Source: Nemertoderma westbladi
Lineage: Eukaryota; Animalia; Xenacoelomorpha
Assembly: GCA_032718475.1 (NCBI GenBank)
Contig: JAUCBJ010003591.1
Span: 1 to 34,943, forward strand
Direction: 5' to 3'
DNA: 34,943 nt
The number at the start of each line of letters is the position of its first letter. Within the stretch, counting starts at the first letter, position 1. Both the position numbers and the translations under genes were made by a program. This document shows positions 5,555 through 33,199 of this stretch, piece by piece. The notes under the pieces were generated by a model, which searched no databases, had not been told where the DNA came from, and saw nothing but the letters and a program-made list of their open reading frames with translations.

Positions 5555-8500
5555 ACGCTACGCCTACAGCTACGACTTCGCCTACACCTACGTCTACACC
5601 TACACCTACGCCTACACCTACACCTACACCTACACCTACACCTACACCTACACCTACACCTACACCTACACCTACACCTACACCTACACCTACACCTACA
5701 CCTACACCTACACCTACGCCTACACCTACGCATACGCCTACACCTACACCTACACCTACACCTACACCTACACCTACACCTACACCTCACCTACACCTAC
5801 ACCTACACCTACACCCTACACCTACACCTACACCTACACCTACCACCTACGCTACGCCTACACCTACACCTACACCTACACCCTACACCTACACCTACAC
5901 CTACACCTACACCTACACCTACACCTACACCTACACCTACACCTACACCTACACCTACACCTACACCTACACCTACACCTACACCTACACCTACACCTAC
6001 ACCTACACCTACACCTACACCTACACCTACACCTACACCTACACCTACACCTACACCTACACCTACACCTACACCTACACCTACACCTACACCTACACCT
6101 ACACCTACACCTACACCTACACCTACACCTACACCTACACCTACACCTACACCTACACCTACACCTACACCTACACCTACACCTACACCTACACCTACAC
6201 CTACACCTACACCTACACCTACACCTACACCTACACCTACACCTACACCTACACCTACACCTACACCTACACCTACACCTACACCTACACCTACACCTAC
6301 ACCTACACCTACACCTACACCTACACCTACACCTACACCTACACCTACACCTACACCTACACCTACACCTACACCTACACCTACACCTACACCTACACCT
6401 ACACCTACACCTACACCTACACCTACACCTACACCTACACCTACACCTACACCTACACCTACACCTACACCTACACCTACACCTACACCTACACCTACAC
6501 CTACACCTACACCTACACCTACACCTACACCTACACCTACACCTACACCTACACCTACACCTACACCTACACCTACACCTACACCTACACCTACACCTAC
6601 ACCTACACCTACACCTACACCTACACCTACACCTACACCTACACCTACACCTACACCTACACCTACACCTACACCTACACCTACACCTACACCTACACCT
6701 ACACCTACACCTACACCTACACCTACACCTACACCTACACCTACACCTACACCTACACCTACACCTACACCTACACCTACACCTACACCTACACCTACAC
6801 CTACACCTACACCTACACCTACACCTACACCTACACCTACACCTACACCTACTCACCTACACCTACACCTACACCTACACCTACACCTACACCTACACCT
6901 ACACCTACACCTACACATACACCTACACATACACATACACCTACACCTACACCTACACCTACACCTACACCTACACCTACACCCACACCCACACCCACAC
7001 CCACACCCACACCCACACCCACACCTACACCTACACCTACACCTACACCTACACCTACACCTACACCTACACCTACACCTACACCTACACCTACACCTAC
7101 ACCTACACCCACACCCACACCCACACCCACACCCACACCCACACCCACACCCACACCCACACCCACACCTACACCTACACCTACACCTACACCTACACTT
7201 ACTTCACCTACACCTACACCTACACCTACACCTACACCTACACCTACACCTAAACCTACACCTACACCTACACCTACACCTACACCTACACCTACACCTA
7301 CACCTACACCTACACCTACACCTACACCTACACCTACAACTACACCTACACCTACACCTACACCTACACCTACAACTACACCTACACCTACACCTACACC
7401 TACACCTACACCTACACCTACACCTACACCTACACCTACACCTACACCTACACCTACACCTACACTTACTTCACCTACACCTACACCTACACCTACACCT
7501 ACACCTAAACCTACACCTACACCTACACCTACACCTACACCTACACCTACACCTACACCTACACCTACACTTACTTCACCTACACTTACTTCACCTACAC
7601 CTACACCTACACCTACACCTACACCTACACATACACCTACACATACACCTACACATACACCTACACCTACACCTACACCTACACCTACACCCACACCCAC
7701 ACCCACACCCACACCCACACCCACACCCACACCTACACCTACACCTACACCTACACCTACACCTACACCTACACCTACACCTACACCTACACCTACACCT
7801 ACACCTACACCTACACCTACACCTACACCTACACCTACACCTACACCTACACCTACTCCTACTCCTACACCTACACCTACACCTACACCTACACCTACAC
7901 CTACACCTACACCTACACCTACACCTAAACCTACACCTAGACCTAGACCCACACCCACACCCACACCCACACCCACACCTACACCTACACCTACACCTAC
8001 ACCTACACCTACACCTACACCTACACCTACACCTACACCTACACCTACACCTACACCTACACCTACACCTACACCTACACCTACACCTACTCCTACTCCT
8101 ACACCTACACCTACACCTACACCTACACCTACACCTACACCTACACCTACACCTACACCTACACCTACACCTACACCTACACCTAAACCTACACCTAGAC
8201 CTAGACCTACACCTACACCTACACCTACACCTACACCTACACCTACACCTACACCTACACTTACTTCACCTACACCTACACCTACACCTACACCTACACC
8301 TACACCTACACCTACACCTACACCTACACCTACACCTACACCTACACCTACACCTACACCTACACCTACACCTACACCTACACCTACACCTACACCTACA
8401 CATACACCTACACCTACACCTACACCTACACCTACACCTACACCTACACCTACACCTACACCTACACCTACACCTACACCTACACCTACACCTACACCTA

Positions 8501-8697
8501 CACCTACACCTACACCTACACCTACACCTACACCTACACCTACACCTACACCTACATCTACACCTACACCTACACCTACACCTACACCTACACCTACACC
8601 TACACCTACACCTACACCTACACCTACACCTACACCTACACCTACACCTACACCTACACCTACACCTACACCTACACCTAGGCCTACGCCTACGCCT
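5555..8697. repeat. Hexamer microsatellite array 1, mainly (CCTACA)n
   Basis: ~3.1 kb of acacct with variants (acgcct, acaccc, acacat, aaacct, agacct, actcct, cacttacttcacc). Confidence 0.99.
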
Positions 8698-8876
8698 AAG
8701 GAAGTACTAAAGTTGCTAGGTGCTAAAGGTACTAAAGGAAGTACTAAAGAACGTACAAAAGGAAGTTTAGTACATATAAAAATAAAAGGAAATTTGGTAC
8801 ATAAGGAAGTTGGGTACATGAGGAAGTTTGGTACATAAGGAAGTTTGGTACATAAGGAAGTTTGGTACAAAAGGAA
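8698..8876. repeat. Satellite spacer copy 1, left part (18-bp aggaagtttggtacata subrepeats); continues at 20661-20728 after the LTR element
   Basis: Near-identical to 21962-22190; rejoining across the AGGAA TSD restores the sequence seen in copy 2. Confidence 0.92.
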
Positions 8877-10487
8877 TGTTGCCGTTATCCCAACACCAGG
8901 GGGGAAAAACGCCGATGCTGGAGACGTGACTTTACAGACCACTGAGCCCCGGCCAGTCACCGGATATTGATTTTGGAGAAGGAATGATTTCTGAGATGCA
9001 GGGTTGCGGTTGAGAAAAAGCTGCATTAGTTGGATATACTCTTTAATGTAACTGAACTCTGTTGAACCTTGTCAACAATATTGAACCCTGATTAAGAATA
9101 ATTTTGGGCTTCCCCAAATCAATATACACCAAATATTCACAATAATTATACACGATAATATAAATCCCTACGGTATATTATTTAATTACCCACTGTTCGC
9201 TCAGAATTTTAGCCTACCTAATGTTCCCCAGATTTTCCCTCGGTCCCAGTCTTAGTGCCGTAGTGTCGGTGTCGGTCGACCCTGTCGCGTGTCCGTTCCA
9301 CCCCTCACGAACCCCGAAGGGAACGATCATCGAGAACCAGCACGGCTTGGCTAAGGATCGGTCCAGTCGGTAGACTCTGTCGCGTATCCGTACCACCCCT
9401 CTCGAACCCCGAAGGGTTCGGTCATCGAGAACCAGTACGGCTTGGCTAGGAGTCTGTCGTGTCGGTGGACCCGTTCGCGTGTCCGTTCCACCCCTCACGA
9501 ACCCCGAAGGGTTCGATCATCGAGAACCAGAACGGCTTGGCTAAGGGTCCGTCAGTTCATCACAGAAACCCAACCACCTAGGCTTTCCGAGTCCGTTTCA
9601 GGCTCGTAGTCGCTTCGGCAGCCGAGAAACTGCTCCGAACAGTCGGTAGGCCAGTAGAGTCTAGTCGAGTCTAGTCCTTTGTCTTTCGACCCCATCGCGT
9701 GTCCGTTCCACCCCTCACGAACCCCGAAGGGAACGATCATCGAGAACCAGTACGGCTTGGCTAAGGGGTCTGTCGTCGGTTCCCGTCGCAAATCCCAGTA
9801 CAAGCAGTCAGCGTTCCGAGTTCTTTTCAGTCTCGTAGTAGCTGCCGTTGACCAGAGACCGCTAAGGGCAGTTCTCGTCAAACCCGTCCTGTGGCCAGCC
9901 CTTTCGCATGTCCTGTCCCACCCCTCACGAACCCCGAAGGGATCGGTCATCGAGAACCAGTACGGCTTAGGTCAGGGGGCAGTCGTTAGTTGGCCACCCG
10001 TTCGCGTGTCCGCTCCACCCCTCACGAACCCCAAAGGGAACGATCATCGAGAACCAGAACGGCTTGGCTACTAAGGGGCCGTCGGTGCCCGTCGCAAATC
10101 CCTGACACAAGCAGTCAGCGGTCCGAGTTCTTTTCAGTCTCGTAATGGCTGCTGTTGGCCAGGGACTAAGCGGTCAGTCCTTGTCCTTTAGGCCTGGCGC
10201 ATTACCAAATCCACCCCTACAGGCAGCAGGAAGTTGGCCAGGGCCTAATAGTACTCAGGCTAACCTGAATACTGCTTGCATTTTCCATCCCCCCCTGGCC
10301 CTTATAACTATGAAATTATTCCCGTACCCTGTAAGTTGCCCCAAAGTTCGCCCATAAATCGCCCCCAGTTTATTGAATGTGCCCAAAACCCATGGTCCCG
10401 CACCCAGTAGTAATATCGGAATAATCAATTTTAAATAAATACAAAAATATTCAACTCGCGTTATGGAAAGTTGAAATACCGCGAACA
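8877..10487 (-). repeat. 3' LTR (1611 bp)
   Basis: Matches 19050-20660 with roughly a dozen differences counted by eye; minus strand begins TGTTCGCGG and ends CGGCAACA. Confidence 0.96.
9278..10082 (-). ncRNA. Array of six ~70-95-nt structured repeats in the LTR (K-turn + C(UUCG)G hairpin); same array at ~19451-20254
   Basis: Conserved cores start at ~9285, 9380, 9475, 9695, 9904 and 10002; compensatory changes in outer and middle stems. The repeat is certain; its RNA function is inferred. Confidence 0.6.
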
Positions 10488-10496
10488 GTCCCCCCC
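10488..10496 (-). other. Polypurine tract
   Basis: Minus strand GGGGGGGAC immediately precedes the TGTT start of the 3' LTR. Confidence 0.8.
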
Positions 10497-10652
10497 AATG
10501 ACCTTCGTGAAGTCTGTCGGTCGATTGAGTTTGCGTAGGTCATTCCCAATATAAAAAACCCAAATTTAATATTGCATAGTTTTTAATTAATTTGGCCTAG
10601 AGTTTGTATAAAAATAAATGTTCGATAAATGTTCCTGGAATATCCCGATCCA

Positions 10653-13253
10653 CTATTTCTTTCTCTGATACGCCTTTCGTCTCTTCGCCCGTCGACTCTC
10701 ATCGATCGCTATGGCTGGTAGAGGAGCGTCAACATCCATCGTGAGTAACGCTTCGGCTTGTCTCCTGGCGGCTCTTCCTTTCGAAGGCATCGGGATCATG
10801 TCGGTTCGTCTCTCCAACTCAGATTTGCGTGCCTCTAGGAACCATTCTCCATCACCGAACTCCTCTTTATACGAGTATAATCGTCTAATGACTTCAAATG
10901 GACCGAATAATCCGGCGCTCAGTAGCAGATCCACGTAATGGAAGGGTAGCGTGGCCGACGTGTGGAGGCGTTCCGGGAAGGAGAAATATCCGCACGCCAT
11001 CTCCTGCGCGATATTCCGAGCGTTTCTCCGAACCTTGGTCTTTAAATGGCTGTTTGCGTATGTTTCAAACATGACCATATTGCCCATAGCGGTAACGTCT
11101 TTGGTTGGACATTTGATATAGCAGCGGGGGCTAGAGGAATGTCCACGGAAACCGCACGTGGTGCAGAGGTTATAAAGGATCGGGCAGACGGAAACGTCGT
11201 GGCCCGATGTCGCGCAGTATGGGCAATAGAGTATCCCGAGGAGCTGGAGGCAAGAATCGGTAACCCGATTCCTTCTGCCGCGTGGGCACTGCTCCGAGCC
11301 GCAGTCGCCGCATACCTCCAACTGCATCTCTCGACCGGGGAATATCGGAATCGGGACGCCGACGTAGTATTCGAGTCGTCGGTCGCTCTTCGGAATATTC
11401 TCGGTGGTCGGTAGCCCGCGGAATGCTAGGCTTTTGCGTAATAGGTTCTCGCTCCGATAACCTTCTTTGTGTCCCGCTGGTCTCAACTCGGATGACCGTT
11501 TCTGGCGGTGGATCCATTCAGTTTGCTCGGCGTACCAACGGGTTAGTCGCATAGGGTCCTGAGGAACGGCGGGTGTAGTAGCCACCGCTGGTCGGCGAAG
11601 AGGTGCCGGAGTTTTAGACGGAGGGATACCAAGGAGATCGTCGGGGGTCGGCGCATCGCTGGGGCCCTCCTCGACCAGTATCGCTGAGCGGGTCCGTTGA
11701 TGGCTGGTACTCGGAATCTCCGACGACCAATCTTCGCCACCCGGGAAAGGATACGGGGATAACCGTTGGCATATGTCGCCGAAGTCGCTCAATGCAGCTG
11801 TAGTAGCTACCTCCCTCGCGGGGCTACCGGAGCCGCGTGGGGTGTAAATGCCTGCTCTCTTCATCGGTTCGGCCGAGGCAACCCGTTTGGCGGCCGGTCC
11901 ATACGCGGCCTCCGGCTCGAGTTGTCGCTTCGGGGTGGAGAGTAGAACACCCTCGTTTAGCCATATCTCTTCTCCTTCCGAAGAGATCAGAGGCTCCTCC
12001 GCACCGAGAAGTTCGGTAATCGTAGGGATGTCGTAAGGTCCGCTCTCGTCCCAGGAATCGATAACGGAGGGCGTTTTCGATTCTCCCGGTGTAATGTTCT
12101 CGACCGCTTTAAACGCGTGGTTTATAACCTCATTCCAGTCGTAGTCGACGAAGGAAAGGGGGACCGCCGTAATAAGGTTATCGAGAGTTCTACAGATAAA
12201 CTTAGCGACGGTGTAGCACTCCATAACAATGTAAACGTAGTTCCGTCGATCGGGATTCTCCCACCTTTGGTGTATCGTCCATTTCCGATCAACGTCCTTC
12301 CATCGACCCTCTCGCTCGCTCTTTATTTCTAATCCCGGGTATCCACCGTATATTTTATTATAGTCCCGGAATTTCTGGGGTTTGAAGTCGATACCGCCGT
12401 TGAGCACAGCGAGGTAGCCGATCCCGGATTTCGTCGGTCTCACCTCTTGGAATCCTCGCATGAACTCGGCGAATCGTAACCAGGCTAGTAGCGTTTGAGT
12501 GTCGATGCAATGGCTAAGGGCGTTGAGGTCGTCTCGTCGGTTTCTTCCTGCAGGAGCGTTCGCGTAGTCGTTCCGGACGTCCGCCTTGATATCCGACCCG
12601 ATTTTAATGACGTCGAAGTCGAAGAGGATCTTTTGGATTTCCGGAGGCAGCAACCAGATCGCTCCGGCTGCCTGCACTTCCTGTCTGGGTGTCGGGAATA
12701 TTCGGCACACCAGTACCAAACCGTCCAGGGTTCCGAGGACGACGACTAAGGATCGACTGTATTCTTTCGCCCCGTACTTTTCCTGGTAGTCGTCTCGGTT
12801 CTGGATAATCGATATGCGTTCCTCGGGAAGCGTCGCCGTACATTCCGACAGGTTTCCCCAGTGGGTGAGGTACGTACTCTTGTCGTCGACGAAACTTTGA
12901 CATCTCTCCAACGTAATCGCTTTCGAGGTGGGCGTCGCGTTTCCCTCGTTGTCGTAGATCAAACATCGGGATATGTAGACGCTCTGCCGGAACGTTTCCC
13001 AAAACGACGAATCGTCCCCTCCGGTTGCCTTTGCGTTCCGAGTTCTTTTCAGTCTCGTACTAGCATCAGCTAACCGGAGGGCTCGTAGATTCTTAGAATC
13101 CGGTCCCTCTCGCCCGGTGAATTTAATGACTCGCACGTTCTCATTTAGCAGGGTGCTCCAATTTGTATCAAAGTCAGGGGATCCGGGTTGCGAATATTCC
13201 AGTAGATCTATCGTGTTACGTAATTCGCCGATAATTTGGCGATTTGGGTCCAT
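10653..13253 (-). CDS. 866-aa accessory protein: DEDDy-like (WRN/EXD2/RNase D-type) 3'-5' exonuclease domain, low-complexity linker, CCHC-like zinc knuckles
   Basis: ExoI-like IYDNEG; ExoII-like ILFDFDVIKIGSDIKAD; CIDTQ; SGIGYLA; ExoIII-like YVYIVME; C-terminal CGDC, CPYCATSGHDVSVC, CTTCGFRGHSSSPRC; intact ORF. Confidence 0.75.
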   Translation of the reverse strand: MDPNRQIIGELRNTIDLLEYSQPGSPDFDTNWSTLLNENVRVIKFTGREGPDSKNLRALRLADASTRLKRTRNAKATGGDDSSFWETFRQSVYISRCLIYDNEGNATPTSKAITLERCQSFVDDKSTYLTHWGNLSECTATLPEERISIIQNRDDYQEKYGAKEYSRSLVVVLGTLDGLVLVCRIFPTPRQEVQAAGAIWLLPPEIQKILFDFDVIKIGSDIKADVRNDYANAPAGRNRRDDLNALSHCIDTQTLLAWLRFAEFMRGFQEVRPTKSGIGYLAVLNGGIDFKPQKFRDYNKIYGGYPGLEIKSEREGRWKDVDRKWTIHQRWENPDRRNYVYIVMECYTVAKFICRTLDNLITAVPLSFVDYDWNEVINHAFKAVENITPGESKTPSVIDSWDESGPYDIPTITELLGAEEPLISSEGEEIWLNEGVLLSTPKRQLEPEAAYGPAAKRVASAEPMKRAGIYTPRGSGSPAREVATTAALSDFGDICQRLSPYPFPGGEDWSSEIPSTSHQRTRSAILVEEGPSDAPTPDDLLGIPPSKTPAPLRRPAVATTPAVPQDPMRLTRWYAEQTEWIHRQKRSSELRPAGHKEGYRSENLLRKSLAFRGLPTTENIPKSDRRLEYYVGVPIPIFPGREMQLEVCGDCGSEQCPRGRRNRVTDSCLQLLGILYCPYCATSGHDVSVCPILYNLCTTCGFRGHSSSPRCYIKCPTKDVTAMGNMVMFETYANSHLKTKVRRNARNIAQEMACGYFSFPERLHTSATLPFHYVDLLLSAGLFGPFEVIRRLYSYKEEFGDGEWFLEARKSELERRTDMIPMPSKGRAARRQAEALLTMDVDAPLPAIAIDESRRAKRRKAYQRKK

Positions 13254-13719
13254 ATTTACGATTATATCCGTTACAAATTAGATCGGTTAATTATAAGTCC
13301 AGAAAGTCTGAAACTATAGCGATAGCAGAATAATTCAGTTTTTTATTTAATTCAGTTTATTAATAACATTGCTATATAGGCATCTATCATCTTATTGCTA
13401 ATACATTCAGCATTTACAGTTACTATAGCTATACATTAATATCCAACCAGTTTTTTATGACTTTTTTGTCCTTTTCTTTTTTCTAATTCTTTTCTTTAGA
13501 CTTTTTTATACCTTTTTTTTTGTCTTTTTTCATTTCATTATTATTTCATCTCATTTCATTTATTTCCACATATATTTTAACATTTAGTTCCACCATTTAT
13601 TTCACATTTATTTATTTATTTCCACATCATCATTGGGTTTATAGCCCCCCGGCTATCATCATTGTTATAAGCGCAGCACCAGGGTGCGCATCATTACATT
13701 TTCATCAGCATACGCGTCA

Positions 13720-16700
13720 TCATTCAGGTTTACTTTTACCGAGTTGTTTTGGGCTGGCGCCTTGGCTTGATAAGTCCGCTGGGTTTTCCTTCCCGTTCAC
13801 GTGATGCCACTGTTCTCGGCCGGTACACTGTTTAATCTCCGTGGCTCGGTTTGCAACAAACGTGGTGTGACGCCGTGATGGAGAGTGGAGATAATAGAGA
13901 ACTATACTCGAATCTACCCAGAAGTGTTGAGATTCTATGGGGATCCGTAGATTCCGCATGACCATGCGATTCTGTCTTACTGCCCAAACTGCAGCTTGTA
14001 GCTCGAGTCTCGGGATCGTTGCTACGAATTCCCCGGATACTGTCTTTGCTTTGGAGAATAAGAAGCTTGTATCGCCGTTTCCATCGTTACTTAGTCTCCG
14101 TAGGAAGGTGACTACGCCGATTCCGGTATTCGAAGCATCCGAAAAGGTGTGGAGCTGGAAGATATCGGTGGGCAATTTATCGAGGAAGAACGGTCTAGGT
14201 ATCCGCATAAGATGTAGGTGTTCGAGCTGCTCCGTCCATTTTCTCCATTTGACGCTGAGGTATGGGGGGAGCTCTTCGTCCCATCCCAGTCCTTCTATCC
14301 ACATTTCCTTAATCAGGTTCATTCCGGCCAAGGTTACTGGGGATATGAAATTTAGTGGGTCGAAGATGGCGCTTTTTATCGACAAACATCCCCTTTTTGT
14401 CATAGGCTTGGGTAGGGGTTTATACTTGAAGATGAATTCGTCTGATTCTATGTCCCATTCAATCCCAAGTACACGATGTTCCACATCCTCCGAATACATT
14501 TTGTTATTTTCCAGCCGGATGTCCTCCGGAAACTTTTCCATAAGTGTTTTGTCGTGGGATCTGAACTTCACGAGCGGAAACCCTCCTTTCTTTAGACATT
14601 CTACCATCCCCATTGCTAGCCGATATGCCTCATCCACATTATCCGCGCCGGCGCATCCGTCGTCCACATAGAAGCATCGTCGAATGGTTTCTATGACGGT
14701 TGGAGGGAACTCGTTTTCGCACATAGTTGCTGTCCTCTTTAGCATGTCACTGCATGCTACCGGCGAGTCCTTAGCGCCGAAGATCCTGACGACCATACGC
14801 ATTACGTCTACGTCCTTTATCGTGAGTTGGCTAATCTCCTGTTGAGTAAGCGTTTTATCCATCCATAGGATACGTAGACAGTCCGAGTCTCTTGGTAACG
14901 TACGAACTTGATGAAACATGGCCTTGATGTCACAGGTGAATGCTACCCGGTTTTCCCTGAACCTGATCAATACGCCAATGAGTGTGCTATATATGTTGGG
15001 TCCCGTGTAAAGTTGACTGTTTAGGGATTCGCCCTGGTACATAGCGGCAGCATCATTTACCACTCGGATTTTCCCACCTTTGCGGGCTTCTACTACATAG
15101 TGGGTTGGGAGATAATATGTTCTTTCACCACCTTGCAGTTCATTCCGTGGTACCATTTCTGCTAATCCATCATCGAGATATCCTTGGATTACGGTATTAT
15201 ATTTCTCCTTTATTTCGGGTTGGTCATTCAGCCGGCGTAGAATCCCTTTAAGTCGCCTAAGTGCCATGCTGGCGTTGTTTGCCATTGGTTTGTTTGGATC
15301 CTTCCATAACATAGGTGAACACCAATGTCCGTCTTTAAACGTGGCCTGGTCGAGAACGTCCATACAATATTGGTCCTCTTCGGATGGGTTTTCGTCCTTT
15401 TCCGCGAACTCCTGGGTCTCCAAATTAAAATATTTCGTCATCTCTCGTTGGGTTTTCTCGGTTTCCAGAAACAAATCCTCGTCCAGATCTGAAGCTGAGC
15501 AATAACCCACAGAGGTTACATTCTCTTTAATCTGACATTTAGGAAGGTAGGTATAGGTATCCGTAGTTTCCTCCTTAATGCCGCAGAGTGTCCATCCCAT
15601 TATTGTTCGTTCAGCATAAAATCCATCATCCTGGTTTATAGATCGAGCGATATCTCCGGTGGGGATGTGTAGTTCCGGTGTATCAAGTCCAATCAGTAGG
15701 GTGATACGGTTCACGTCCAACTGCGGACACCTCAGGTCTACATCGTCTCGGTCTAATTGTATGAGGGGGGCATACTCGGCTGATTGTCGGAACCGCACCC
15801 GGAGGTCTGTGTGTACCAAGGCGTTCTTGATGGTTAACTTAGCCGTTTCGTAGCCCTTCATCACTCCTTCCATCTGGAGTTGTACCTCCCCGGACTCTAC
15901 CTCTCTGTTATCGGTGATGGTTTGTATGGGCCGTTTACAAGGTTCATATTCTAGGCCGAGTTGCTCGAGGAAATCCCGGTCGATGATGGTTCCGTCAGAC
16001 CCGTTATCGAGGAACGCGAGTGTCGTCAGAGATTTGCCGACTCCTTGGATCCTTGCTGGGATTACCTTTGCGAAAACCATGTAGCGGCGATTTATAAGAT
16101 TAATCGTGGCCGAAATATTGGTTACTTGTGGTGTATCGGTGGAGATCTTAAACGGGTTGGTTTCTCTCCGTTGGGTTGTCCGGGTTCCTTTGAAGATGTG
16201 GTTTGTTTCTCCTCTTCGCCTGGCTTCGATCCGAAAGGGGAGGGTAGTAAAATCGAAGTTCGCGGGGATGTGGAGGAGCGTGTGATGGCGTTGGTCGTTA
16301 CAGACAGCACAGCATGATCTTTGGTCGCACTCCCGAACATAGTGACCTGTTCCAAGACACCGGAAGCATCCTCGGTATTTCATTATCGCCTCGAAGCGTG
16401 AGACGAGTTCGGCGAACTGAAACTTTCTGCAGAATTCCACTTTATGTTTCTCCCCACAGAAGAGACAGAGCAGGGAATTTGTGATGCCTTCCCTTTCGGG
16501 TGCCCAACTCGCGAGATAACATGCCCATTCCTCGGCGGATGTCGGTTCCTCGTAGTCTTCGTCGTCGGAATCCTCGGCCATGGTGATGGCCATCGTACTC
16601 ACCGGTGGGGGGCGGAATCTCGGTTTCGGAGGGGTTATCTTACTCCTGGAGTTGCTTTCTATTCCGTCCAACTTTGCAAGACTTTGTTTTGAAAACATCG

Positions 16701-17331
16701 AGTCATTCATGGCTTCGGAGATATCGTCCAGGAATGCCGACATTTCAAGGAAGCTAGGATCTCGATCTGGATGTCTGCGCCGGAGATCTACACATTTATA
16801 AGCCCACTTACTTTGTAGCCATCCGGTGAACTTCCGGGCGATCTGTCGGAGGTTTAGAATGTTGTTCACCTGGTCTTCCTTATTTAAGGGTTTCAGAGTA
16901 TAGTAGGTATCCTTCATAGAGTCGGAGAATTCCTGTATGTTCTGTGGGTCCCCTAGTGATCCCGCGTCCTGTATCAGTCTCTCTAGAGTTTTATTAATTA
17001 TAGTTCCGGTATTTCCGTATCTTTTATCTAGAGTTTTCCATGCGTCATAGTATGCCTCATGAGAACCTCCTTCAAAACATGCAATAATTCTGCGTGGTTT
17101 GTCACCCAGGTATTGCGATAAATATACCAATTTCTGTGCGTCGGCTATGTCTGTTGATCCGATCTGCGCAAAGAACCGTTTCTTGAATCTGAGGTAATCG
17201 ACGGGATCTCCTTCGAAGGTGCGAATCTCCATCTTAGGCATGGCAAGGCGGTTCTCCAACGCCCGGATGATGCTGACGTCGTCTGAACTAGAGTGACTCG
17301 GAGGGTTATAGTTATTGGCACTCACTCCCAT
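13720..17331 (-). CDS. Bel/Pao Gag(core)-protease-RT-RNase H polyprotein, ending before integrase
   Basis: DUF1759-like PKMEIRTFEGDPVDYLRF; triple knuckle CLFCGEKH..C / CFRCLGTGH..C / CAVCNDQRHHTLLH; protease FLDNGSD; RT KIRVVNDAA, CDIKAMFHQV, FGAKDSP, YVDD; RNase H FSDAS, TIPRLELQAA, VDSSIVL, ENPADL. Confidence 0.96.
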   Translation of the reverse strand: MGVSANNYNPPSHSSSDDVSIIRALENRLAMPKMEIRTFEGDPVDYLRFKKRFFAQIGSTDIADAQKLVYLSQYLGDKPRRIIACFEGGSHEAYYDAWKTLDKRYGNTGTIINKTLERLIQDAGSLGDPQNIQEFSDSMKDTYYTLKPLNKEDQVNNILNLRQIARKFTGWLQSKWAYKCVDLRRRHPDRDPSFLEMSAFLDDISEAMNDSMFSKQSLAKLDGIESNSRSKITPPKPRFRPPPVSTMAITMAEDSDDEDYEEPTSAEEWACYLASWAPEREGITNSLLCLFCGEKHKVEFCRKFQFAELVSRFEAIMKYRGCFRCLGTGHYVRECDQRSCCAVCNDQRHHTLLHIPANFDFTTLPFRIEARRRGETNHIFKGTRTTQRRETNPFKISTDTPQVTNISATINLINRRYMVFAKVIPARIQGVGKSLTTLAFLDNGSDGTIIDRDFLEQLGLEYEPCKRPIQTITDNREVESGEVQLQMEGVMKGYETAKLTIKNALVHTDLRVRFRQSAEYAPLIQLDRDDVDLRCPQLDVNRITLLIGLDTPELHIPTGDIARSINQDDGFYAERTIMGWTLCGIKEETTDTYTYLPKCQIKENVTSVGYCSASDLDEDLFLETEKTQREMTKYFNLETQEFAEKDENPSEEDQYCMDVLDQATFKDGHWCSPMLWKDPNKPMANNASMALRRLKGILRRLNDQPEIKEKYNTVIQGYLDDGLAEMVPRNELQGGERTYYLPTHYVVEARKGGKIRVVNDAAAMYQGESLNSQLYTGPNIYSTLIGVLIRFRENRVAFTCDIKAMFHQVRTLPRDSDCLRILWMDKTLTQQEISQLTIKDVDVMRMVVRIFGAKDSPVACSDMLKRTATMCENEFPPTVIETIRRCFYVDDGCAGADNVDEAYRLAMGMVECLKKGGFPLVKFRSHDKTLMEKFPEDIRLENNKMYSEDVEHRVLGIEWDIESDEFIFKYKPLPKPMTKRGCLSIKSAIFDPLNFISPVTLAGMNLIKEMWIEGLGWDEELPPYLSVKWRKWTEQLEHLHLMRIPRPFFLDKLPTDIFQLHTFSDASNTGIGVVTFLRRLSNDGNGDTSFLFSKAKTVSGEFVATIPRLELQAAVWAVRQNRMVMRNLRIPIESQHFWVDSSIVLYYLHSPSRRHTTFVANRATEIKQCTGREQWHHVNGKENPADLSSQGASPKQLGKSKPE

Positions 17332-18611
17332 ACTTGATGGATCAATAATAGGTGGAGTTTTAATAATGACGCGGTACGAGTTTGTGGTGTGGATGTAAAT
17401 GGGTTGTTAGATCGGGGAGTGGCGTCCCGTTCCGAGTCCCTTTCAGGCTCGTACTTGGGTACACTCGCTGTCGTGGTGTTGGATGGGAAATAAGGTTCCT
17501 CATTCTTTAGCGTAGCCGGTGGGGGATGGAACACCGGTGCTTGTGCCGATAACGTAGACTGTTTGGTAGGCGGGATCTCGGGTTTCGGAAGTTTCGCCGC
17601 TGTTGGTGTAAATGACTTCTCTAATTCCGGTACCGGGATTGGCTCATATTCCTGATCTATATCCCTTTCCCAGTCCTCGTATAGTTGAATATCTCGTTCT
17701 ATAAGCGCGGCTTCGTATTCCGCAAGTTTCGCAATATCTGCATTCTTTTTGTGAGTGAGAATCGCTTGGGCCTCGGCGTGTTGTTTACACATTTCTGCTT
17801 CCCATTTACGTTGTTCGATCTCTTGTTTGGCCTCTCGTTCACGTTGTTCGATCTCTCGTTTGGCCTCTTGTTCACGTTGTTCGATCTCTCGTTTGGCCTC
17901 TTGTTCACGTTGTTCGATCTCCTGTCTGACCTCCTGTCTGCGTCGTTCGACCTCTTGTTCGGCCTCTCGCTTTTGTGTTTCGGCGGCTAATACATCTTGC
18001 TCGGTTTGCAGTTGAATATACTCATCTTCCATCCGAGCTTTGAGGGCTAATGCCTTCCGTTCTCGCAGTTGGTCTCGGAGTGGCTGACCCCCTTGAGAGC
18101 TATGCGCTGAGCCGGATCTCTCGCTCCTAGCGCTGGAGTGCTGATTTCTAGCGGACCCCGTTCTTTTTCGATGTACTGCCGTCCTGATGCTGGAGGATCG
18201 TACTGATTCCGCGTCTGTTCTTTCAGCCCTCTTGTAGTACTGTTCCTCATAGCCTCTCACAAGGCTGAGGGTCCTCCGGTGTTGTTTGCGGAACCCATCT
18301 AGATGTACAACGTGTTCTTCCAACTTGGGGTAGTTTTCCTGATCGGTGGAGGGAACGAGATCTTGGTACGCCTGTATCATTCTTTCGTACCGCTGTAGGA
18401 TATTTCGGATACTTTGAAGCTGAGTTTGTACCTCATTGAGGGGGGTTTTGACTCCCTTGAGTTGTTTCTCCATCCGTTGAAACGCTCGGGTTACTCCGCC
18501 TTTGAGAGCCCCTAGCCGACGGGTCATGTTCTTGACGTTTGGTACCTCGTCGGCTTCCGAGTCTGTGTGGTGATCCATCTCGTCGGTATCGGATACGTTA
18601 TTTGTCGTCAT
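17322..18611 (-). CDS. Gag N-terminal coiled-coil region (429 aa), out of frame with the downstream gag-pol
   Basis: Position, charged helical composition and EIEQREQEAKR repeats; the downstream (-1) frame is open from ~17408, so the frames overlap. Confidence 0.8.
   Translation of the reverse strand: MTTNNVSDTDEMDHHTDSEADEVPNVKNMTRRLGALKGGVTRAFQRMEKQLKGVKTPLNEVQTQLQSIRNILQRYERMIQAYQDLVPSTDQENYPKLEEHVVHLDGFRKQHRRTLSLVRGYEEQYYKRAERTDAESVRSSSIRTAVHRKRTGSARNQHSSARSERSGSAHSSQGGQPLRDQLRERKALALKARMEDEYIQLQTEQDVLAAETQKREAEQEVERRRQEVRQEIEQREQEAKREIEQREQEAKREIEQREREAKQEIEQRKWEAEMCKQHAEAQAILTHKKNADIAKLAEYEAALIERDIQLYEDWERDIDQEYEPIPVPELEKSFTPTAAKLPKPEIPPTKQSTLSAQAPVFHPPPATLKNEEPYFPSNTTTASVPKYEPERDSERDATPRSNNPFTSTPQTRTASLLKLHLLLIHQVWE
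17806..17970. repeat. 33-bp coding tandem repeat in gag
   Basis: ttcacgttgttcgatctctcgtttggcctcttg repeated ~4-5 times. Confidence 0.9.
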
Positions 18612-18799
18612 TGTAACGCCTCGTCGATAGCTAGATACGCGATGTCATAAAACAGTTCCTCGTAGGTATTGTACTCAGCTTGGACCACCCGAACGGTAAT
18701 CCTGAATCGTCCGACGTTCGTTCCTTGTACTTCAACTTCGACGTGCCAGATTCCTGGCTCAACTTGGATTATATCAATGGGTGTGATCGATACTTCCAT
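18608..18799 (-). CDS. Small 63-aa upstream ORF whose stop overlaps the gag start (ATGA)
   Basis: ATG start, protein-like composition, TGA at 18610-18608 overlapping ATG at 18611-18609. Confidence 0.4.
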   Translation of the reverse strand: MEVSITPIDIIQVEPGIWHVEVEVQGTNVGRFRITVRVVQAEYNTYEELFYDIAYLAIDEALQ

Positions 18800-19034
18800 T
18801 CCCTGTTAACAACTCTCCAAATATGTGATCTGCCGACTACGAGTTGGTTAGATCGAGTTTGTTGATTAATTAAACCATGACTTTGTCTCAACTCAAATAC
18901 CAGAGTTTCCTCGTAGTGGGTGCTGGCAAGCACGTAGAGAGTTTTGAAGAGTATTGAAGGATTCTCAACTTCCACCAGTTGAAGTTGACCGTAATTATTC
19001 TTAATTTTGACACCCTGTCAAAATTAACCGCATG

Positions 19035-19047
19035 AATTATTCTTAAT
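19035..19047 (-). other. Candidate primer-binding site (self-priming type), ATTAAGAATAATT
   Basis: Lies 2 nt inside the 5' LTR end; no TGG tRNA-type PBS; exact complement lies in the LTR at 19264-19276. Confidence 0.55.
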
Positions 19048-19049
19048 TT

Positions 19050-20660
19050 TGTTGCCGTTATCCCAACACCAGGGGGGAAAAACGCCGATGCTGGAGACGT
19101 GACTTTACAGACCACTGAGCCCCGGCCAGTCACCGGATATTGATTTTGGAGAAGGAATGATTTCTGAGATGCAGGGTTGCGGTTGAGAAAAAGCTGCATT
19201 AGTTGGATATACTCTTTAATGTAACTGAACTCTGTTGAACCTTGTCAACAATATTGAACCCTGATTAAGAATAATTTTGGGCTTCCCCAAATCAATATAC
19301 ACCAAATATTCACAATAATTATACACGATAATATAAATCCCTACGGTATATTATTTAATTACCCACTGTTCGCTCAGAATTTTAGCCTACCTAATGTTCC
19401 CCAGATTTTCCCTCGGTCCCAGTCTTAGTGCCGTAGTGCCGGTGTCGGTCGACCCTGTCGCGTGTCCGTTCCACCCCTCACGAACCCCGAAGGGAACGAT
19501 CATCGAGAACCAGCACGGCTTGGCTAAGGGTCGGTCCAGTCGGTAGACTCTGTCGCGTATCCGTACCACCCCTCTCGAACCCCGAAGGGTTCGGTCATCG
19601 AGAACCAGTACGGCTTGGCTAGGAGTCTGTCGTGTCGGTGGACCCATTCGCGTGTCCGTTCCACCCCTCACGAACCCCGAAGGGTTCGATCATCGAGAAC
19701 CAGAACGGCTTGGCTAAGGGTCCGTCAGTTCATCACAGAAACCCAACCACCTAGGCTTTCCGAGTCCATTTCAGGCTCGTAGTCGCTTCGGCAGCCGAGA
19801 AACTGCTCCGAACAGTCGGTAGGCCAGTAGAGTCTAGTCGAGTCTAGTCCTTTGTCTTTCGACCCCATCGCGTGTCCGTTCCACCCCTCACGAACCCCGA
19901 AGGGAACGATCATCGAGAACCAGTACGGCTTGGCTAAGGGGTCTGTCGTCGGTTCCCGTCGCAAATCCCAATACAAGCAGTCAGCGTTCCGAGTTCTTTT
20001 CAGTCTCGTAGTAGCTGCCGTTGACCAGAGACCGCTAAGGGCAGTTCTCGTCAAACCCGTCCTGTGGCCAGCCCTTTCGCATGTCCGTCCCACCCCTCAC
20101 GAACCCCGAAGGGATCGGTCATCGAGAACCAGTACGGCTTAGGTCAGGGGGCAGTCGTTAGTTGGCCACCCGTTCGCGTGTCCGCTCCACCCCTCACGAA
20201 CCCCGAAGGGAACGATCATCGAGAACCAGAACGGCTTGGCTACTAAGGGGCCGTCAGTGCCCGTCGCAAATCCCTGACACAAGTAGTCAGCGGTCCGAGT
20301 TCTTTTCAGTCTCGTATTGGCTGCTGTTGGCCAGGGACTGCTAAGGGCAGTCCTTGTCCTTTAGGCCTGGCGCATTACCAAATCCACCCCTACAGGCAGC
20401 AGGAAGTTGGCCAGGGCCTAATAGTACTCAGGCTAACCTGAATACTGCTTGCATTTTCCATCCCCCCCTGGCCCTTATAACTATGAAATTATTCCCGTAC
20501 CCTGTAAGTTGCCCCAAAGTTCGCCCATAAATCGCCCCCAGTTTATTGAATGTGCCCAAAACCCATGGTCCCGCACCCAGTAGTAATATCGGAATAATCA
20601 ATTTTAAATAAATACAAAAATATTCAACTCGCGTTATGGAAAGTTGAAATACCGCGAACA
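19050..20660 (-). repeat. 5' LTR (1611 bp)
   Basis: Direct repeat of 8877-10487; followed by AGGAA TSD. Confidence 0.96.
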
Positions 20661-20728
20661 AGGAAGTTTGGTACATATAAAAATTAAAGGAAATTTGGTA
20701 CAAAATGGAGTTTAGTACATATAAAAAT

Positions 20729-21961
<1,233 letters not shown>

Positions 21962-22209
21962 AAGGAAGTACTAAAGTTGCTAGGTGCTAAAGGTACTAAA
22001 GGAAGTACTAAAGAACGTACAAAAGGAAGTTTAGTACATATAAAAATAAAAGGAAATTTGGTACATAAGGAAGTTGGGTACATGAGGAAGTTTGGTACAT
22101 AAGGAATTTTGGTACATAAGGAAGTTTGGTACATGAGGAAGTTTGGTACATAAGGAAGTTTGGTACATAAGGAAGTTTGGTACAAAAGGAAGTTTGGTAC
22201 ATATAAAAA
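21962..22209. repeat. Satellite spacer copy 2, left part; continues at 25805-25858 after the LINE
   Basis: Same as 8698-8876 with extra 18-bp units; right part matches 20676-20728. Confidence 0.92.
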
Positions 22210-25200
22210 GAGGAGTAATACCAGATTTCAGTGGTGAACATCAGTATGATTTTCCATACCCGAAGTGCACATACGATGTTAGTGGAAATTGGTCTTCTCC
22301 AATATACTACTCACCGCACTCTGGTCAAAGTCAGAATATAGGAGACAGGGACTTCAGATCATATAAAAGAAGTCCCTACCCCATCCATCCACAAAGACAG
22401 CAGCGCTTTTAAATCGTCAAATCCTTCAAACACACCACCTCCAGTTTTCAACAATGATGAAACCAACAAGAGAAACTGTATGGGACTAAAACTGTTAACG
22501 TTAAATTGTGAAGGCTACATCAGGAATAAAAATTATGTGGTAGAGCTACTAGACAACATACAGCCTGATATAGTATGTCTCCAAGAGCATTGGCTTGGTC
22601 CAAGACAGGCTGAGGTCTGTCTAATGCGTAATAAAGTACACTTGGCATACTCCTGTGCAGCTCTGACAGTTTCAGATGGAATGCTCACACCCAAACCCCG
22701 GGTAAGAGGCGAGGGGGGAACTGTGTTATTGGTTAAAAATGAACTAGTACCATTCTGCGCCTCACTGACAACAAACTCTGACAGAGTGTGTGGGATAACC
22801 ATTAGATCACTATATGATCAGAGCTTAGCAATAATTAACACTTATATGCCAGCCAATTGTAATAGAGAAAACGATACGCATGACTATTTGCGAGAGACCA
22901 ACAACCTCAATGTCCTGATCACCGAGTGTATTAATTCTAATCTAACACCCATTATAATGGGTGATATAAATGGAACTATTCAACGTGATAACACCATACA
23001 ACCTAGAGGAGCCTCGCACTACTCTGCTTTTGGCAAGATGTTTTATGACAACATAATCGAGCCTAATGAATTCATTGCTGCAGATATGACAACAAAATCG
23101 TCTGGAATGCTGTTTACGTATTCAGCCAAGTATAATGGGGTTGACCACGCGAGATCTAGCTATATAGATCATATATTTATCCCTCAACAGTGGTTTGATT
23201 ATCTAATAAAATCTACAGTTGGTGAACCTGATAATAATAATGTTTCGAAACATCTACCAGTGTATGCAGTTCTCCAACTAGTAAAGGCAGAGAACACCGT
23301 ACCACTTAACTTCCGTAAGAAAAAACAAGATAACATTAGATGGAACTTCAAAAAGGCCACAACTGAAAATTTGGCAACCTACAAAGAAAACATAGAAAGT
23401 AATCTTACTAAACCAACATTAACCGAAACATCTGTTGATGGCAGAGCCAAGCATCTTATTAGAACCATATCGAATGCGGCACGTTCCTTTATTCCAATGT
23501 CGTATGTAAAATACCGGCCATACTCAAACAACGAATCATACGAGGACCATGTACAAGCTCTAGTAAACTCAAACCGAAATAACTCCAAATCTTTTTGGCG
23601 AAAAATAAAAACAAAAAAGCATCATGTTTTCACTGATAAGCAACTAATACAGGTTCATCAACGTGTGACTGATCAATTTAAATGTGATCAGTCCGATCAA
23701 GGTAGTAAAAAACAGGAGAATATTGTCATAGACCAGTCTGAAGCAGCCACGGTAAAACTTAAGATGGAAACCGTTATAGACAAAATGATAGAGCAATCTG
23801 ATGCAGATAATTAGGTACCGTGACCGTGAAACCAAAAGAAATCTCCCAACTAATTAACAAACTTAATCGCGGCAAATCAAATGACTTCTACCAACTCAAT
23901 ACAGAAAGCCTAGTATACGGACGCTCACCAGGATTATGTAGCTACATTGCAGATCTTTTTACAGATATCCAAAACAGTGGCACCTGTCCTGAAATTTTCT
24001 CCGTTAGTACCATATCTCCCATTCCAAAAGGACGAAGAGTCGGTACAATCCCACGAGACGTTAATTTTCTATTCATTTCCATTGCTCTAAGCATAGCAAA
24101 ACTCTGGGAACTGTCTCTGCTGGAAGAACTCTCTAAACTACCAACGAATAACTTGCAACTTGGTTATAAAGCGGGTTCAGGGTCTGACATCGCACACCAG
24201 GTTGTCAACAGTATTATTAACAAATTTACTAAGAAAAGATAGCACATGTATGCAATGTGTGTGGATTTAACATCGGCGTTTGATACGGTCTGTCACAGTA
24301 AGTTATTTGCTAAACTAAGGAGGACTGACGTCCAACCTCGAGTTATTGATGCCCTGGAATCCTTTTACAAGAACTCAACTTCCCACATCGCTGCAAATGG
24401 GCACTTCATCCACAAACCAATACAAATACAAAGAGGTGTGCGTCAAGGTGGCATCCTATCACCCATATTATTTAACTTCTATCTAACCGAACTCATACAT
24501 GACTTGGAAACAAGTGGTTTGGGTGCACATATAGGAGAGCAATCATTTTGTGTCGTCAATTACGCAGATGATATTATAATTTTGTCAACCCTGAAGACTG
24601 ACTTAGCAAAACTTCTAAAAACCTCATCTGATTACTTCAAGAATCACAACTTAGAGCTTAACATTGTAAAATGTCATTACCTGTCAATCGATGTTAAAGG
24701 GAATCCATCAATAGATGACACCATCATGCTGGAGGGAAATATATTGCGCGCAGTGAAATCATGTAAATATATGGGTATACCAATTCCAGCTGGCTGTAAA
24801 TCAATCTACAACTTCAACAATAGCAAAATCTGGAGTAATATGTCTCAAATGGAGCGGTCAGGACTTACATTAACCGACGTCCCACTGAGTATAGTATCTC
24901 GTATATGGAAAGCCATCTGCATACCGACCGAGTATAGCTTATGGCTCCTCAAGTCTCACCTCTGAAGGGATAAACAGTCTAGGCAAAGGTATGCGTAGCG
25001 TAAGGCGATGCGCAAAGTGATACACTTAAATAACCGTGTCTCCAATAACGTACTATATTCATTGTTCGATATTAATATAGATGCGTGTCTGCGGCTACAG
25101 CAGTTCAATTTTATATTCAGATTGTTTAACACAGGCAATCCGAAACTAAACTGGTTGTTTGGAAATATTTTGTGTGACCACTGTACGGGAAACAGAGTTG

Positions 25201-29047: not shown

Positions 29048-32000
29048 TCATCCCAATTGTCGTGCTCCTGTGGTCGCTTCCGCCAACTCTTCCTTTTGCA
29101 ATTGCACGCGCGCCTTCTCCGACGCACCCTGCGCCTTGCGCTGCAATCGCTGAGCCTCTATAATAGAATGATAGTGGTCGTCCTTGACTTGACGCTTGTC
29201 TTGGACCTCTCCTCCTGGTTCCTTCCGTGAGCCTTGAGCTCCAACGGTCATCGTTGTGGGCGCTGCGGTTCGCTGTTCCTCGATTCTCTTGGCGGTCAAT
29301 GACCCCACCGGTACGTGAGTCAACAAAAACTCGTTGCGGTATTGTATAGCCGCCATCCTCCAATCTCCTCGCGCGCGCACCACTTTTCTAGTTTCCGAAA
29401 ACAAACCTTTCGTAATACGGTCGCAAATAGCAACAAAGTTCCAAGTGTATTTATTATCCATATTCAATTGTCTGAAGTATTCCCGAACCACGATGACTCC
29501 AGTGTTCTGTGGAAGGTCTTGAGCGGTTAGGATGAGCTCTTGATATAGTGGTAACGACTGTAGATATGGCTCATTCGCAACGTGTGATGGGTCTACCGCC
29601 CAAAATCCATATCCCGCCTTAAATGGTAACCAACGCATCTGCGCTTGAATGTGGTAGTCAGCCACACCCTCCCACTTATCTAGCATCTCCTGAAGTAGGT
29701 TAGCGCTATGGTTTTGGAAGGAATCGTCTCGCAGTTGGCATCTCGCGCTACGATGTCCATTTATTCCACAATATCCACATTGAGAAATGAATACGGTGCA
29801 CGTATGAAACGAATGGTCGGTCTCACTGCACCAACGGCAGACCTTATGCGCCGCCTCCACTACCGCGTCGCACGATTTTTGATTGTGCCTTGTGCTGCCG
29901 CACAACTTGCACCTACGCGCTTGTGGAAACCAAGCCCTCTCGTATATGAGGTCTCCAATCGGTTTCGCACTTCCTTCTTTCCCAATGTCTAATACGATGT
30001 CGTCCTCTCCGGTCAGCGGTTGTCGATCCGGAACAAAGTAAACATCCTCGCCCTTGTCCTCTATCTCCAATATTTCCTCCCGCGTTCGTTTCGGATATGT
30101 CTTCTCCACCGGAAGATCTACTCCAAACACCTCTACTAACATCTCCGGCCAACCCTCTCTAACAGGTCTATCAGCCTCCAAGTGGAAGGGAGTACCAAAC
30201 CCGCGGGTTTGATTCCAGAACCACTTCTCCAAAGCCTCTGGCGTCGGATACTCCATCGACGGTCGGTCTCCCAAATCTCCGATATTCTGTCGATATATCC
30301 CTTCGAATATCGCTAATCCTCTCCTAACCATCGACGTATTCTCTAACTATTGGTTGAAGAACGGGGTTAAGAAACGCTTCATCACGTCGGATTGGATTCC
30401 CCCTTTCGAGCGAACGTATTGATCTCCTCCGAACACCAATGGATGACGCTTCAAAACTCGCGCAACGATATCCACTAACAAACAAGTTACCGTGTTCGAC
30501 TCAAGCACCAAATAATATTGTAGTGACGCACGGGGTTGCGCGCAAATGTTCCAATACACTAACGCTTGCCGCTTGAAGTGGGATTTGAACTCCGCTCCTG
30601 GTGGCGTGTTATATTCACCATACGCCTCCTCGTATTTCTTCTGCGTCTTCAACTTGAAGTCCCAATTATACAACAAATGTGCTATGAAGCCCATACCAGT
30701 CTTGGCAGAGTTGGGATACTCCCTATAAATTCCAATGTCTTGTGCCCATAGCAACAATAGCTTGGTGTCGACAAACGGCCTCGGCAATCTATCTTCCAAA
30801 TCAGTCATGGCGTTAAAGTCACTCTCCAAATCACTCTGGACTCCCGATCCCACCTTGACGTAATCTTGGTTGAGAATAGCCTCTCTAACCTTCTTGGGTA
30901 ACATCCTGGCGTCGATACGCTCTGCTCCGTCCATACCTCCTCGCCTGCATACCTCCAAAATCTGTTCCCTAGGATCCTTTCCCTTCCGATATTGTGTCGT
31001 TATTATGGGCTCTGGTCTCTCTCGATCCACCCTTACGCGCATAAACACATGAGTCACACCATCGGCCGCGCGAATTTGAATGCATTTGCTAGTCAAGCAT
31101 TCCTGATGAGACTCTCCTTCATTGTCGTAGAACATCACTCTCCAATCCTGTAGTGATTCCTCCGTTTTCCTCCACTGACGCTGAATCTCGTCTGATGGGG
31201 TCCACATGCGCTCGATAGCCTTGTGGTCGTCATATCGGGTGTAAGAACCCTTCCTCCTCAGCCACGCCTGGTCTACCTCCTCGTCGTCTGGGAACGTAGC
31301 CACCGCGACCCATACCTTGATGTACTTATCCAACCATCCGAATAACTTACTCTCCTTCCCCGGAGCTCCAATCTTATCCAGTGTGTTATAATCCGTGATC
31401 TGCATCGGGACATCACGCAAGAACTTCGCGCATAAAACTTCCCGTAGACAGTCGACATTCCAATAGTCCGACATCCTCACCATCGGCAAGAATCTAATCG
31501 CTTCTCGCGACTCCGGGTGATCTACCAATATCGCAGGTTCGTTGCCATCGGAATAATACACCGGTCGGGGTTGAGATACGGCCTGTGGAACAAATCCGGT
31601 CACTCTCCTCGTCTCCTCCTGATGTCTATCCGCGGTCTTATTATATTCCGCTACCCGCGCTTCGAATAACTGTTTTGCCTTCGCTGCTCGCTCCTCCTGC
31701 CGCAACGCGTCTATGTCGTCCTGATGCTCAGGCGTGAGGTTTCTCGCTCGATGAGGCGAAGTAAACGTTGTCCAGGGACTCGAGAGCTCCAAACCCGCGG
31801 GTTTGGTACCCGAGTCCCGTGCCTCTTCGCGCCGTGCCTCTAGGTCCTTGTAGGCTCGGTACAGCGAAATGGCCGCTGCCGTCTCTATCAAACTAGGTGT
31901 CGAACAGGGTTTAATCTCCGTATATGGATCTAATGTCGTAACGGTCGGCGTAATGGGTCTTGGAGGTCGCTTTCCACTGAAGTCGATACTGATCATCGGG

Positions 32001-32578
32001 TTGTTCATTGGGTAACCTCCCTCGTTGTATCTAAGGAATTGGTGAGCTTGACATCGCGTTAATATTGGTTCAGGATGTTGCTTGTCCAATCGGTCGGGAA
32101 TCGCCATGTCTTTTTTGTTCATGCATTCACCACATTTATAGAACAACTTGTATACACTGAAGACCTTCGGAGTCTCTTGATCCTCACCTCGAGTCCTCCG
32201 GTACAGATGCATTCCGTCGAACTGATCTCGGACTGCAGGTAGAGGTTCGTCGTGTCGTAAATACATGTTCATATGGTACAGCCACGCAATCTCCTCGTCC
32301 TGATCTGCACTAATGTCACATACGTCTAACGCAAAATCGTAGGGATACCGAGTGCGATACTCCTTCCGCAAAACTTCCATATGGTCCCCCAACACTCTCA
32401 TTCTTTCCCTCCTTAATTCCTTATCATACGCGGGTTTATACTTTCCATTTAGCTCCATTACCGACCTTCCATGGTAGTAGACATTCGAATCTTTACATCC
32501 CAGTCGGGCAAATGGTAGTTCCGCCTCCTCTCTAGCAGTAAATCCTCTCCGCGGTTGCGCTCTAATTTCCTTCTCCAT
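29048..32578 (-). CDS. Second exonuclease/zinc-knuckle gene (homolog of 10653-13253), split by one in-frame TAG at 30349-30347
   Basis: ORFs 30347..32611 and 29048..30331 are in the same frame. Motifs: FYDNEG, ILNQDYVKVGSGVQSD, FVDTK, TGMGFIA, YYLVLE, CKLCGSTRHNQKSC, CRWCSETDHSFHTC, CGYCGINGHRSARC. First ATG at 32578. Confidence 0.75.
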
Positions 32579-33199
32579 TATGAGCCGCGTATATACATAT
32601 ATATATTCCAATAGGTTCCGTTACGTAACTAATTACACTGTGGGTAAATCAGTTAGATGCCGCCGAAGGACAGACCTCCCGACCCCCCCCCCCCCGCCTT
32701 CCAGCAGTTCAGGTTCGACTCTCTAGATCCCGTCTCATTCCTAACTATACTCTAACCTATTTCCATGCATAGCGCAAAACTTTGGAGATAAACTGGCCGT
32801 GACCATCTCACTTTTTGATGCCCAAACTACTCCCATTACTTGTATTAAACTACAGTAGTTAGAAAGGACAATAGTCTCATTGCTCGACTATACCAAACCC
32901 ACAGGTTTGATAATCGAACATCACACTTCACTGCAAACTACTGAGTGGGGTTGTGAGTAGTATATATTTGCTATGATACTGTATCAAGGTCACCCATAGC
33001 CCATCATTACCGTCCATTTCTAGTACTGCCTCCAATCAGAAGCCACCATTTCAACCTTTACCAGTGGTCGTTATTATTTCAACCAATCAGATGTCAGCAT
33101 TTCATCCGTAACCATGGTAACTTCTCAAGTTCCCGCATCTTCCGCTAGAGGCGTTATTAGTCACCCAACGCTAGTACTGCCTCCAATCACCAAGCCTTT

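Follow-up and report, generated by a model that had tools for sequence, protein, structure and literature searches.

A Bel/Pao retrotransposon of Nemertoderma westbladi that probably primes minus-strand DNA synthesis with its own RNA

The stretch of Nemertoderma westbladi DNA that was analysed (contig JAUCBJ010003591.1 of assembly GCA_032718475.1, 34,943 nucleotides, hereafter the window) contains an 11.8 kb Bel/Pao element, which occupies positions 20660-8877 of the minus strand. Alignment of its two ends to each other delimited a 5' LTR (19050..20660, minus) and a 3' LTR (8877..10487, minus), each of 1611 nt and bounded by TG...CA, and a 5-bp target site duplication was read at either end (20661..20665 at the 5' LTR and 8872..8876 at the 3' LTR, no strand assigned). 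The 3' LTR is preceded by a polypurine tract, consisting of a G run, and a 2-nt spacer (10488..10498, minus); as this tract lies directly upstream of the 3' LTR it fixes the direction of the element. TG...CA LTRs, a target site duplication and a polypurine tract, as are characteristic of Bel/Pao elements, were all present. The element is young, the LTR pair differing by 9 mismatches in 1608 aligned columns together with small indels, and it belongs to a high-copy family seen in sequencing runs of the same organism. The insertion site is a 17-nt minisatellite flanked by long tandem arrays, one of 12-nt and one of 6-nt units (5400-8900, 20660-22250). Outside the element the window harbours a LINE that is broken and encodes endonuclease and RT domains (22342-24965, plus) and an ORF for a Frizzled/Smoothened membrane region, a host gene (827-1897, minus).

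Three open reading frames were located between the LTRs. ORF1 (17322..18644, minus, ATG at 18611) encodes an N-terminal gag-like coiled-coil region and matched no Pfam family at E<=0.001. ORF2 (13720..17406, minus) encodes a DUF1759 gag, an aspartic protease, a reverse transcriptase (RT) and an RNase H region (PF03564, PF13650, PF05380), which is a gag, protease, RT and RNase H set of the Bel/Pao type. Among the matches listed, the RT/RNase H part of ORF2 was related to Bel/Pao homologues at about 30-41% identity, the best relative stood at ~40%, and PF05380 was carried by all of at least 120 homologues. ORF1 and ORF2 overlap at 17322-17406 in different frames, while the two form one continuous ORF in a relative (L032); the change of frame may be a programmed shift or damage. 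No integrase was found in the window: ORF2 ends right after the RNase H with no integrase following, and the C-terminal 600 aa of 10 homologues matched only up to ~13730. Integrase families are present in relatives, unlike in the window copy, which is non-autonomous.

The place of the integrase is taken by ORF3 (10653..13277, minus, 874 aa), an extra ORF before the 3' LTR. ORF3 gave no significant PDB, Pfam or database match and matched none of the 78 related loci listed. The one lead, to a DEDDy 3'-5' exonuclease with CCHC knuckles (score 0.82, PF01612/PF00098 cluster), suggests from sequence that ORF3 is possibly an exonuclease-like protein. A paralogue of ORF3 with 22-26% identity was detected at 29048-32620 (minus) in two consecutive frames with one stop between them; four copies of a 30-nt motif lie around it, and no RT or LTR was seen nearby.

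The upstream part of the 5' LTR folds into six repeated hairpins of ~90 nt with UUCG loops (19444..20262, minus), and all six recur in the 3' LTR. The better fold was obtained on the sense strand in 6/6 repeats, a few base pairs covary and no Rfam family was matched. By eye, a GA/GA motif within the repeats resembles a kink-turn, and the repeats might serve in packaging, in export or in the binding of a protein.

The sequence-only reading of this DNA had drawn attention to the junction of the 5' LTR and the leader, where it placed a 13-mer at 19047-19035, separated by AA from the LTR end at 19050, and these positions were borne out. The 13-mer (PBS 1, 19035..19047, minus) is preceded by a 2-nt spacer (19048..19049, minus) mirrored by the 2-nt spacer after the polypurine tract, and it is a putative primer-binding site (PBS) of a non-tRNA kind. 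As had also been claimed, TGG is missing from the expected place, the first TGG being 72 nt past the LTR end; this TGG was rejected as a primer site, because of its distance from the LTR and its position within a hairpin. An 18-nt site for a tRNA 3' end, as expected for Bel/Pao, was not found in the element, and no tRNA genes were found within the window. PBS 1 is instead complementary to the element's own LTR, as in Tf1: the exact 13-nt complement reported at 19276-19264 was recovered there (19264..19276, minus) and again in the 3' LTR (9103-9091; 9091..9103, minus). This segment is the predicted self-primer, and its 3' end is situated 214 nt before the LTR end.

The caution that the match is AT-rich is justified, the 13-mer being 92% AT. 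A 13-nt complement was nevertheless reached by 0/500 dinucleotide shuffles of the LTR, and the chance expectation of the match was at most about 5e-4 even when six offsets were allowed and the local composition richest in AT was assumed. When the 13-mer was compared with 12 other Bel/Pao LTRs, the best match was 5-7 nt. The predicted primer/PBS duplex has an energy of -9.8 kcal/mol, relatives ranging from -7.7 to -18.1. A primer assembled across a splice junction in the window element was considered and rejected, as the best junction match (10 nt, offset 5) was inferior to the contiguous 13 nt.

An exact second copy of the 13-mer lies 42 nt downstream of the first (PBS copy 2, 18993..19005, minus). 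The interval given in the sequence-only reading began at a coordinate that takes in this copy; its text was silent on it. Sequencing depth over PBS copy 2 was similar to that of the internal region and joints that skip a copy were rare (depth 17-240 versus >10,000), from which two PBS copies appear to be the norm in most copies of the family. A second PBS copy was found in 0/14 relatives. An 11-bp hairpin (19002..19026, minus) is predicted to form with its 3' arm over the start of PBS copy 2, and the local cost of opening was 1.45 kcal/mol for site 1 and 2.07 kcal/mol for site 2. When the RNA was folded with its 5' end at 19276 the primer paired with site 2 (0.82) and with site 1 at only 0.03; with the 5' end at 19400 both pairings were lost, and these two outcomes weigh against the proposed priming. 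Of side duplexes like those of the Tf1 pretzel, the best candidate was 10 bp, mostly G-U, and lay over variable positions. PBS copy 2 is likely to be masked by the hairpin, or else to pair with the primer sequence of the 3' LTR.

The surroundings of the primer were then inspected for signals of transcription. The claim of a TATA-like AT-rich sequence upstream held in part: the region is AT-rich, and a TATAWA box is absent upstream of the primer. TATAAT occurs at -47 and TATATT at -23 and -59, and no canonical TATA box was found at -30 of 19276. Among the relatives a TATA box precedes the primer by 31 nt in L002 and by 124, 133 and 95 nt in L011, L059 and L032, respectively; the boxes 95-133 nt upstream in these three relatives imply that the RNA does not have to start with the primer. 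Downstream, the ATTAAA described at 19220-19215 is present (19215..19220, minus), 43 nt after the primer, and is a candidate poly(A) signal. Poly(A)-like signals occur 11-93 nt after the primer in 8/12 of the LTRs examined. A second ATTAAA is found upstream of the primer at 19359; as this ATTAAA precedes the first base of the primer by 83 nt, the idea of a primer located at the poly(A) site was rejected.

To place the pairing in a wider context, metagenome contigs were scanned for related elements, at least 546 relatives being confirmed and at least 78 loci kept; no relatives were found among viral contigs. In 12 loci, with an RT identity of 35-38%, the 5' LTR end could be fixed by comparison of the two LTR copies (L015 and L029 among these represent one family; L056, with unclear ends, and three tandem assemblies were left out). 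TGG was present in the first 8 nt after the LTR in 0/12 relatives. Compensatory change in related families, which the sequence-only reading had put forward as a check, was evident: 11/12 relatives have a stretch of 10-15 nt, starting 0-4 nt past the LTR end, that is complementary to their own LTR, against complements of >=10 nt in 3/154 cross-pairs and 3/78 downstream positions scored alike, one of the three downstream matches being the second PBS copy of the window element itself. The complementary sequences differ between the families of relatives. The exception, L031, gave no match to its own LTR, and its LTR ends without CA and without a polypurine tract. Ten further loci had only the LTR start fixed and their ends guessed; a match of >=10 nt was obtained in 3/10 of these (L003, L058, L018), and a fourth, L032, was recognized by eye.

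The complement is contiguous in three of the relatives (L011, L022, L047) and in eight (L002, L015, L023, L024, L029, L048, L059, L076) it becomes complete only when a GT-AG junction is spliced, with a GTAAG donor in 6/8. In L003, L032 and L058, too, the complement arises only across a GT-AG intron within the LTR. The L011 contig carries both an acceptor-containing version of the LTR and a diverged intron-less sister (1-326, 6694-7103); the presence of both on one contig indicates that contiguous primers can arise by intron loss, and the contiguous primer of the window element may have been derived in this way from a splice-junction primer like those of many relatives. In a midpoint-rooted tree, built without a tRNA-primed reference set, the window element sits on a long branch close to L013, L032 and a Clytia protein, the support being modest; the tree does not resolve the clade.

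Two geometric features mark the ends of the putative primer. In 7/9 relatives with a GGGGCCGG-type tract, the spacer between U5 and the PBS was equal to that between the polypurine tract and U3 (0/0, 0/0, 4/4, 3/3, 3/3, 2/2 and 2/2, the window element having 2/2), and the remaining two, L058 and L018, were off by one; in five further relatives the end of the tract was undefined or disagreeing (L022). Equal spacers are expected if the first base of the site is where DNA synthesis starts and if trimming is the same at the two ends. Furthermore, tandem duplications start at the 3' edge of the primer in 3/15 elements compared with 0.7% of other LTR positions (binomial P 1.5e-4, an optimistic value, as the test was designed after two cases had been seen). 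Such duplications would be expected if strong-stop DNA ended at this edge because the primer had been cut off the template.

Variation within the family of the window element was in keeping with this. The 10-nt unit directly after the primer (19254..19263, minus) has decayed copies 19 and 29 nt downstream, and exactly these 10 nt are tandem-duplicated in a family variant seen in the sequencing runs X1 and X3 (register by eye). Primer position 10 was changed from U to C in two clipped contig ends of X1, and PBS position 4 from A to G in one contig each of X1 and X3 (both registers by eye). These two positions are partners of one base pair, which would be converted from A-U to G-C; the variant bases come from separate clipped contigs, none long enough to span both positions. 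Among 30 variable places listed, none fell within the primer and site 1 (0/26 positions; P about 0.05), and the flanks were equally quiet, making this weak evidence.

These data suggest that the Bel/Pao element probably primes minus-strand DNA with its own RNA, and covariation in relatives, the family variant pair and the duplication footprints lend good support to the earlier proposal that a Bel/Pao lineage primes independently of tRNA. The 13 nt of LTR RNA at 19276-19264 would pair with site 1, 2 nt downstream of the 5' LTR, and cleavage after 19264 would give a 3' end for extension by the RT. The primer may be the extreme 5' end of the RNA, as in the strict Tf1 form with R starting at 19276, or may carry a 5' tail; the promoter cues are mixed. 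In Tf1, RNase H is the cutter of the self-primer, and the element's own RNase H would presumably act here. By analogy with Tf1, the RT would copy the 2-nt spacer and 214 nt of the LTR, giving a strong-stop DNA of ~216 nt that would end at 19263 and jump to the equivalent of 19263 in the 3' LTR, a point that lies before the ATTAAA. The predicted ends are 19264 for the 3' end of the primer and 19263 for the new 5' end of the template. An overhang of 2 nt at each DNA end would, again as in Tf1, be trimmed by integrase; the window copy has no integrase, so integration would need that of a partner.

Several other explanations of the pairing were weighed against this reading. That the match reflects AT-rich chance, or a fold-back duplication left over in a defective copy, is highly improbable. 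The composition of the 13-mer, a fold-back hairpin nearby in the leader and the missing integrase all lean towards it, against which stand the shuffles and the low chance expectation, the match running across the family and the same geometry in 11/12 relatives, which already largely refute a chance origin. The pairing could alternatively be structural or regulatory (circularization, a dimer contact or a switch), with priming left to an unrecognized RNA of the host, for instance an internal fragment of a tRNA. Two site copies with competing hairpins do suggest a switch, and some Copia lineages are reported to use half-tRNA primers without TGG (PMC6317226). However, in each relative the paired stretch starts 0-4 nt from the end of the LTR, and its sequence tracks the relative's own LTR; a PBS that changes by family in step with the LTR is something a fixed host primer would not allow. 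As spacer symmetry and duplication footprints additionally mark both primer ends, we regard this explanation as improbable.

A further possibility retains a primer made of element RNA and dispenses with the genomic RNA 5' end as its source. The primer might be a short trans-acting transcript of the LTR that terminates at the ATTAAA; or it might be the copy in the 3' LTR, trimmed to 19264 by, possibly, the ORF3 protein. The poly(A)-like signals behind the primer in most LTRs and the exonuclease lead for ORF3 are compatible with this, and a separate short spliced RNA would explain how the primer intron survives in the LTRs of relatives. The duplications at the 3' edge of the primer, however, fit a template 5' end made at that point, and ORF3 is unmatched in the 78 listed loci, many of which have the pairing; such a source of the primer appears unlikely.

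Tf1, Tf2, Tj1, Tosmo and the Tf1/sushi group (Ty3/gypsy chromoviruses) are described as self-primed in PMC4600332 and bioRxiv 2022.12.06.519325. Like these, the window element has no tRNA site and a site following the 5' LTR that complements a segment inside the LTR. Unlike them it carries Bel/Pao domains without an integrase or chromodomain, and neither the chromovirus-type RT of Ty3/gypsy nor the chromodomain integrase that characterizes the lineage was found. It further differs from Tf1 in that its primer site is doubled, the pretzel side duplexes are not clear, a primer formed by the RNA 5' end is only a candidate feature and many of its Bel/Pao relatives build the primer across an intron. 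Judged by its sequence, the element likely works like Tf1, yet is not a member of Tf1/sushi.

The ICTV profile of Belpaoviridae (PMC8742986) describes tRNA-primed elements whose primer site of 18 nt fits the tRNA-Arg or tRNA-Gly of the host, whose LTRs measure 0.2-1.2 kb and whose genome of 4.2-10 kb includes integrase, and terms Bel/Pao replication poorly understood. The window element shares with this family the DUF1759 gag, the order protease-RT-RNase H, PF05380, TG...CA LTRs, a 5-bp target site duplication and the polypurine tract, and is set apart from it by a self-complementary 13-nt site, 1.6-kb LTRs, a length of 11.8 kb, the lack of integrase and an extra ORF. Self-priming is also predicted for the plant Copia TAR lineage (Houba, Osr-1) and Tcn1, based on LTR complementarity of >=10 nt starting 0-5 nt past the LTR (PMC6317226). 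Self-priming in the window element was inferred by the same complementarity criterion; the element belongs to another superfamily and host, and an origin of self-priming in Bel/Pao would likely be independent of TAR and Tcn1. Bdelloid LTR elements are reported to have an ORF3 with a DEDDy exonuclease (PMC5408684). The window element resembles them in having an additional ORF, placed after pol and before the 3' LTR, for which a DEDDy domain is possible; it differs from them in that its domain call is only a lead and in that integrase is absent.

The sequence-only reading did not know self-priming to be described in Bel/Pao, and no report was found in the literature searched; most subscription journals, Repbase entries and supplements fell outside the search, and a prior mention is possible. 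Bel/Pao self-priming was not encountered in the available portions of PMC3601003, PMC554778, PMC8556966, PMC8220671, PMC6934838 and PMC7472051. A broader scenario can be offered tentatively, and we hold it to be somewhat doubtful as a whole: a broad clade of Bel/Pao elements of aquatic animals would have swapped tRNA priming for an RNA self-primer, mostly assembled by splicing of an LTR intron, and the window family would be an intron-less branch with a doubled primer site, one copy of which primes and the other holds the RNA 3' end for strand transfer, spreading without an integrase of its own and with an exonuclease-like gene.

Tf1 is so far the only element for which self-priming has been shown, predictions having been made for the Tf1 group and one plant Copia lineage, and the present element would place this known mechanism in a superfamily that is defined as tRNA-primed. 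A self-primed Bel/Pao clade, if true, would represent a further and probably independent origin of self-priming. Bel/Pao elements of this kind would escape control by tRNA fragments, and their self-priming would explain the primer sites that are missing when Bel/Pao elements are annotated on the basis of tRNA.
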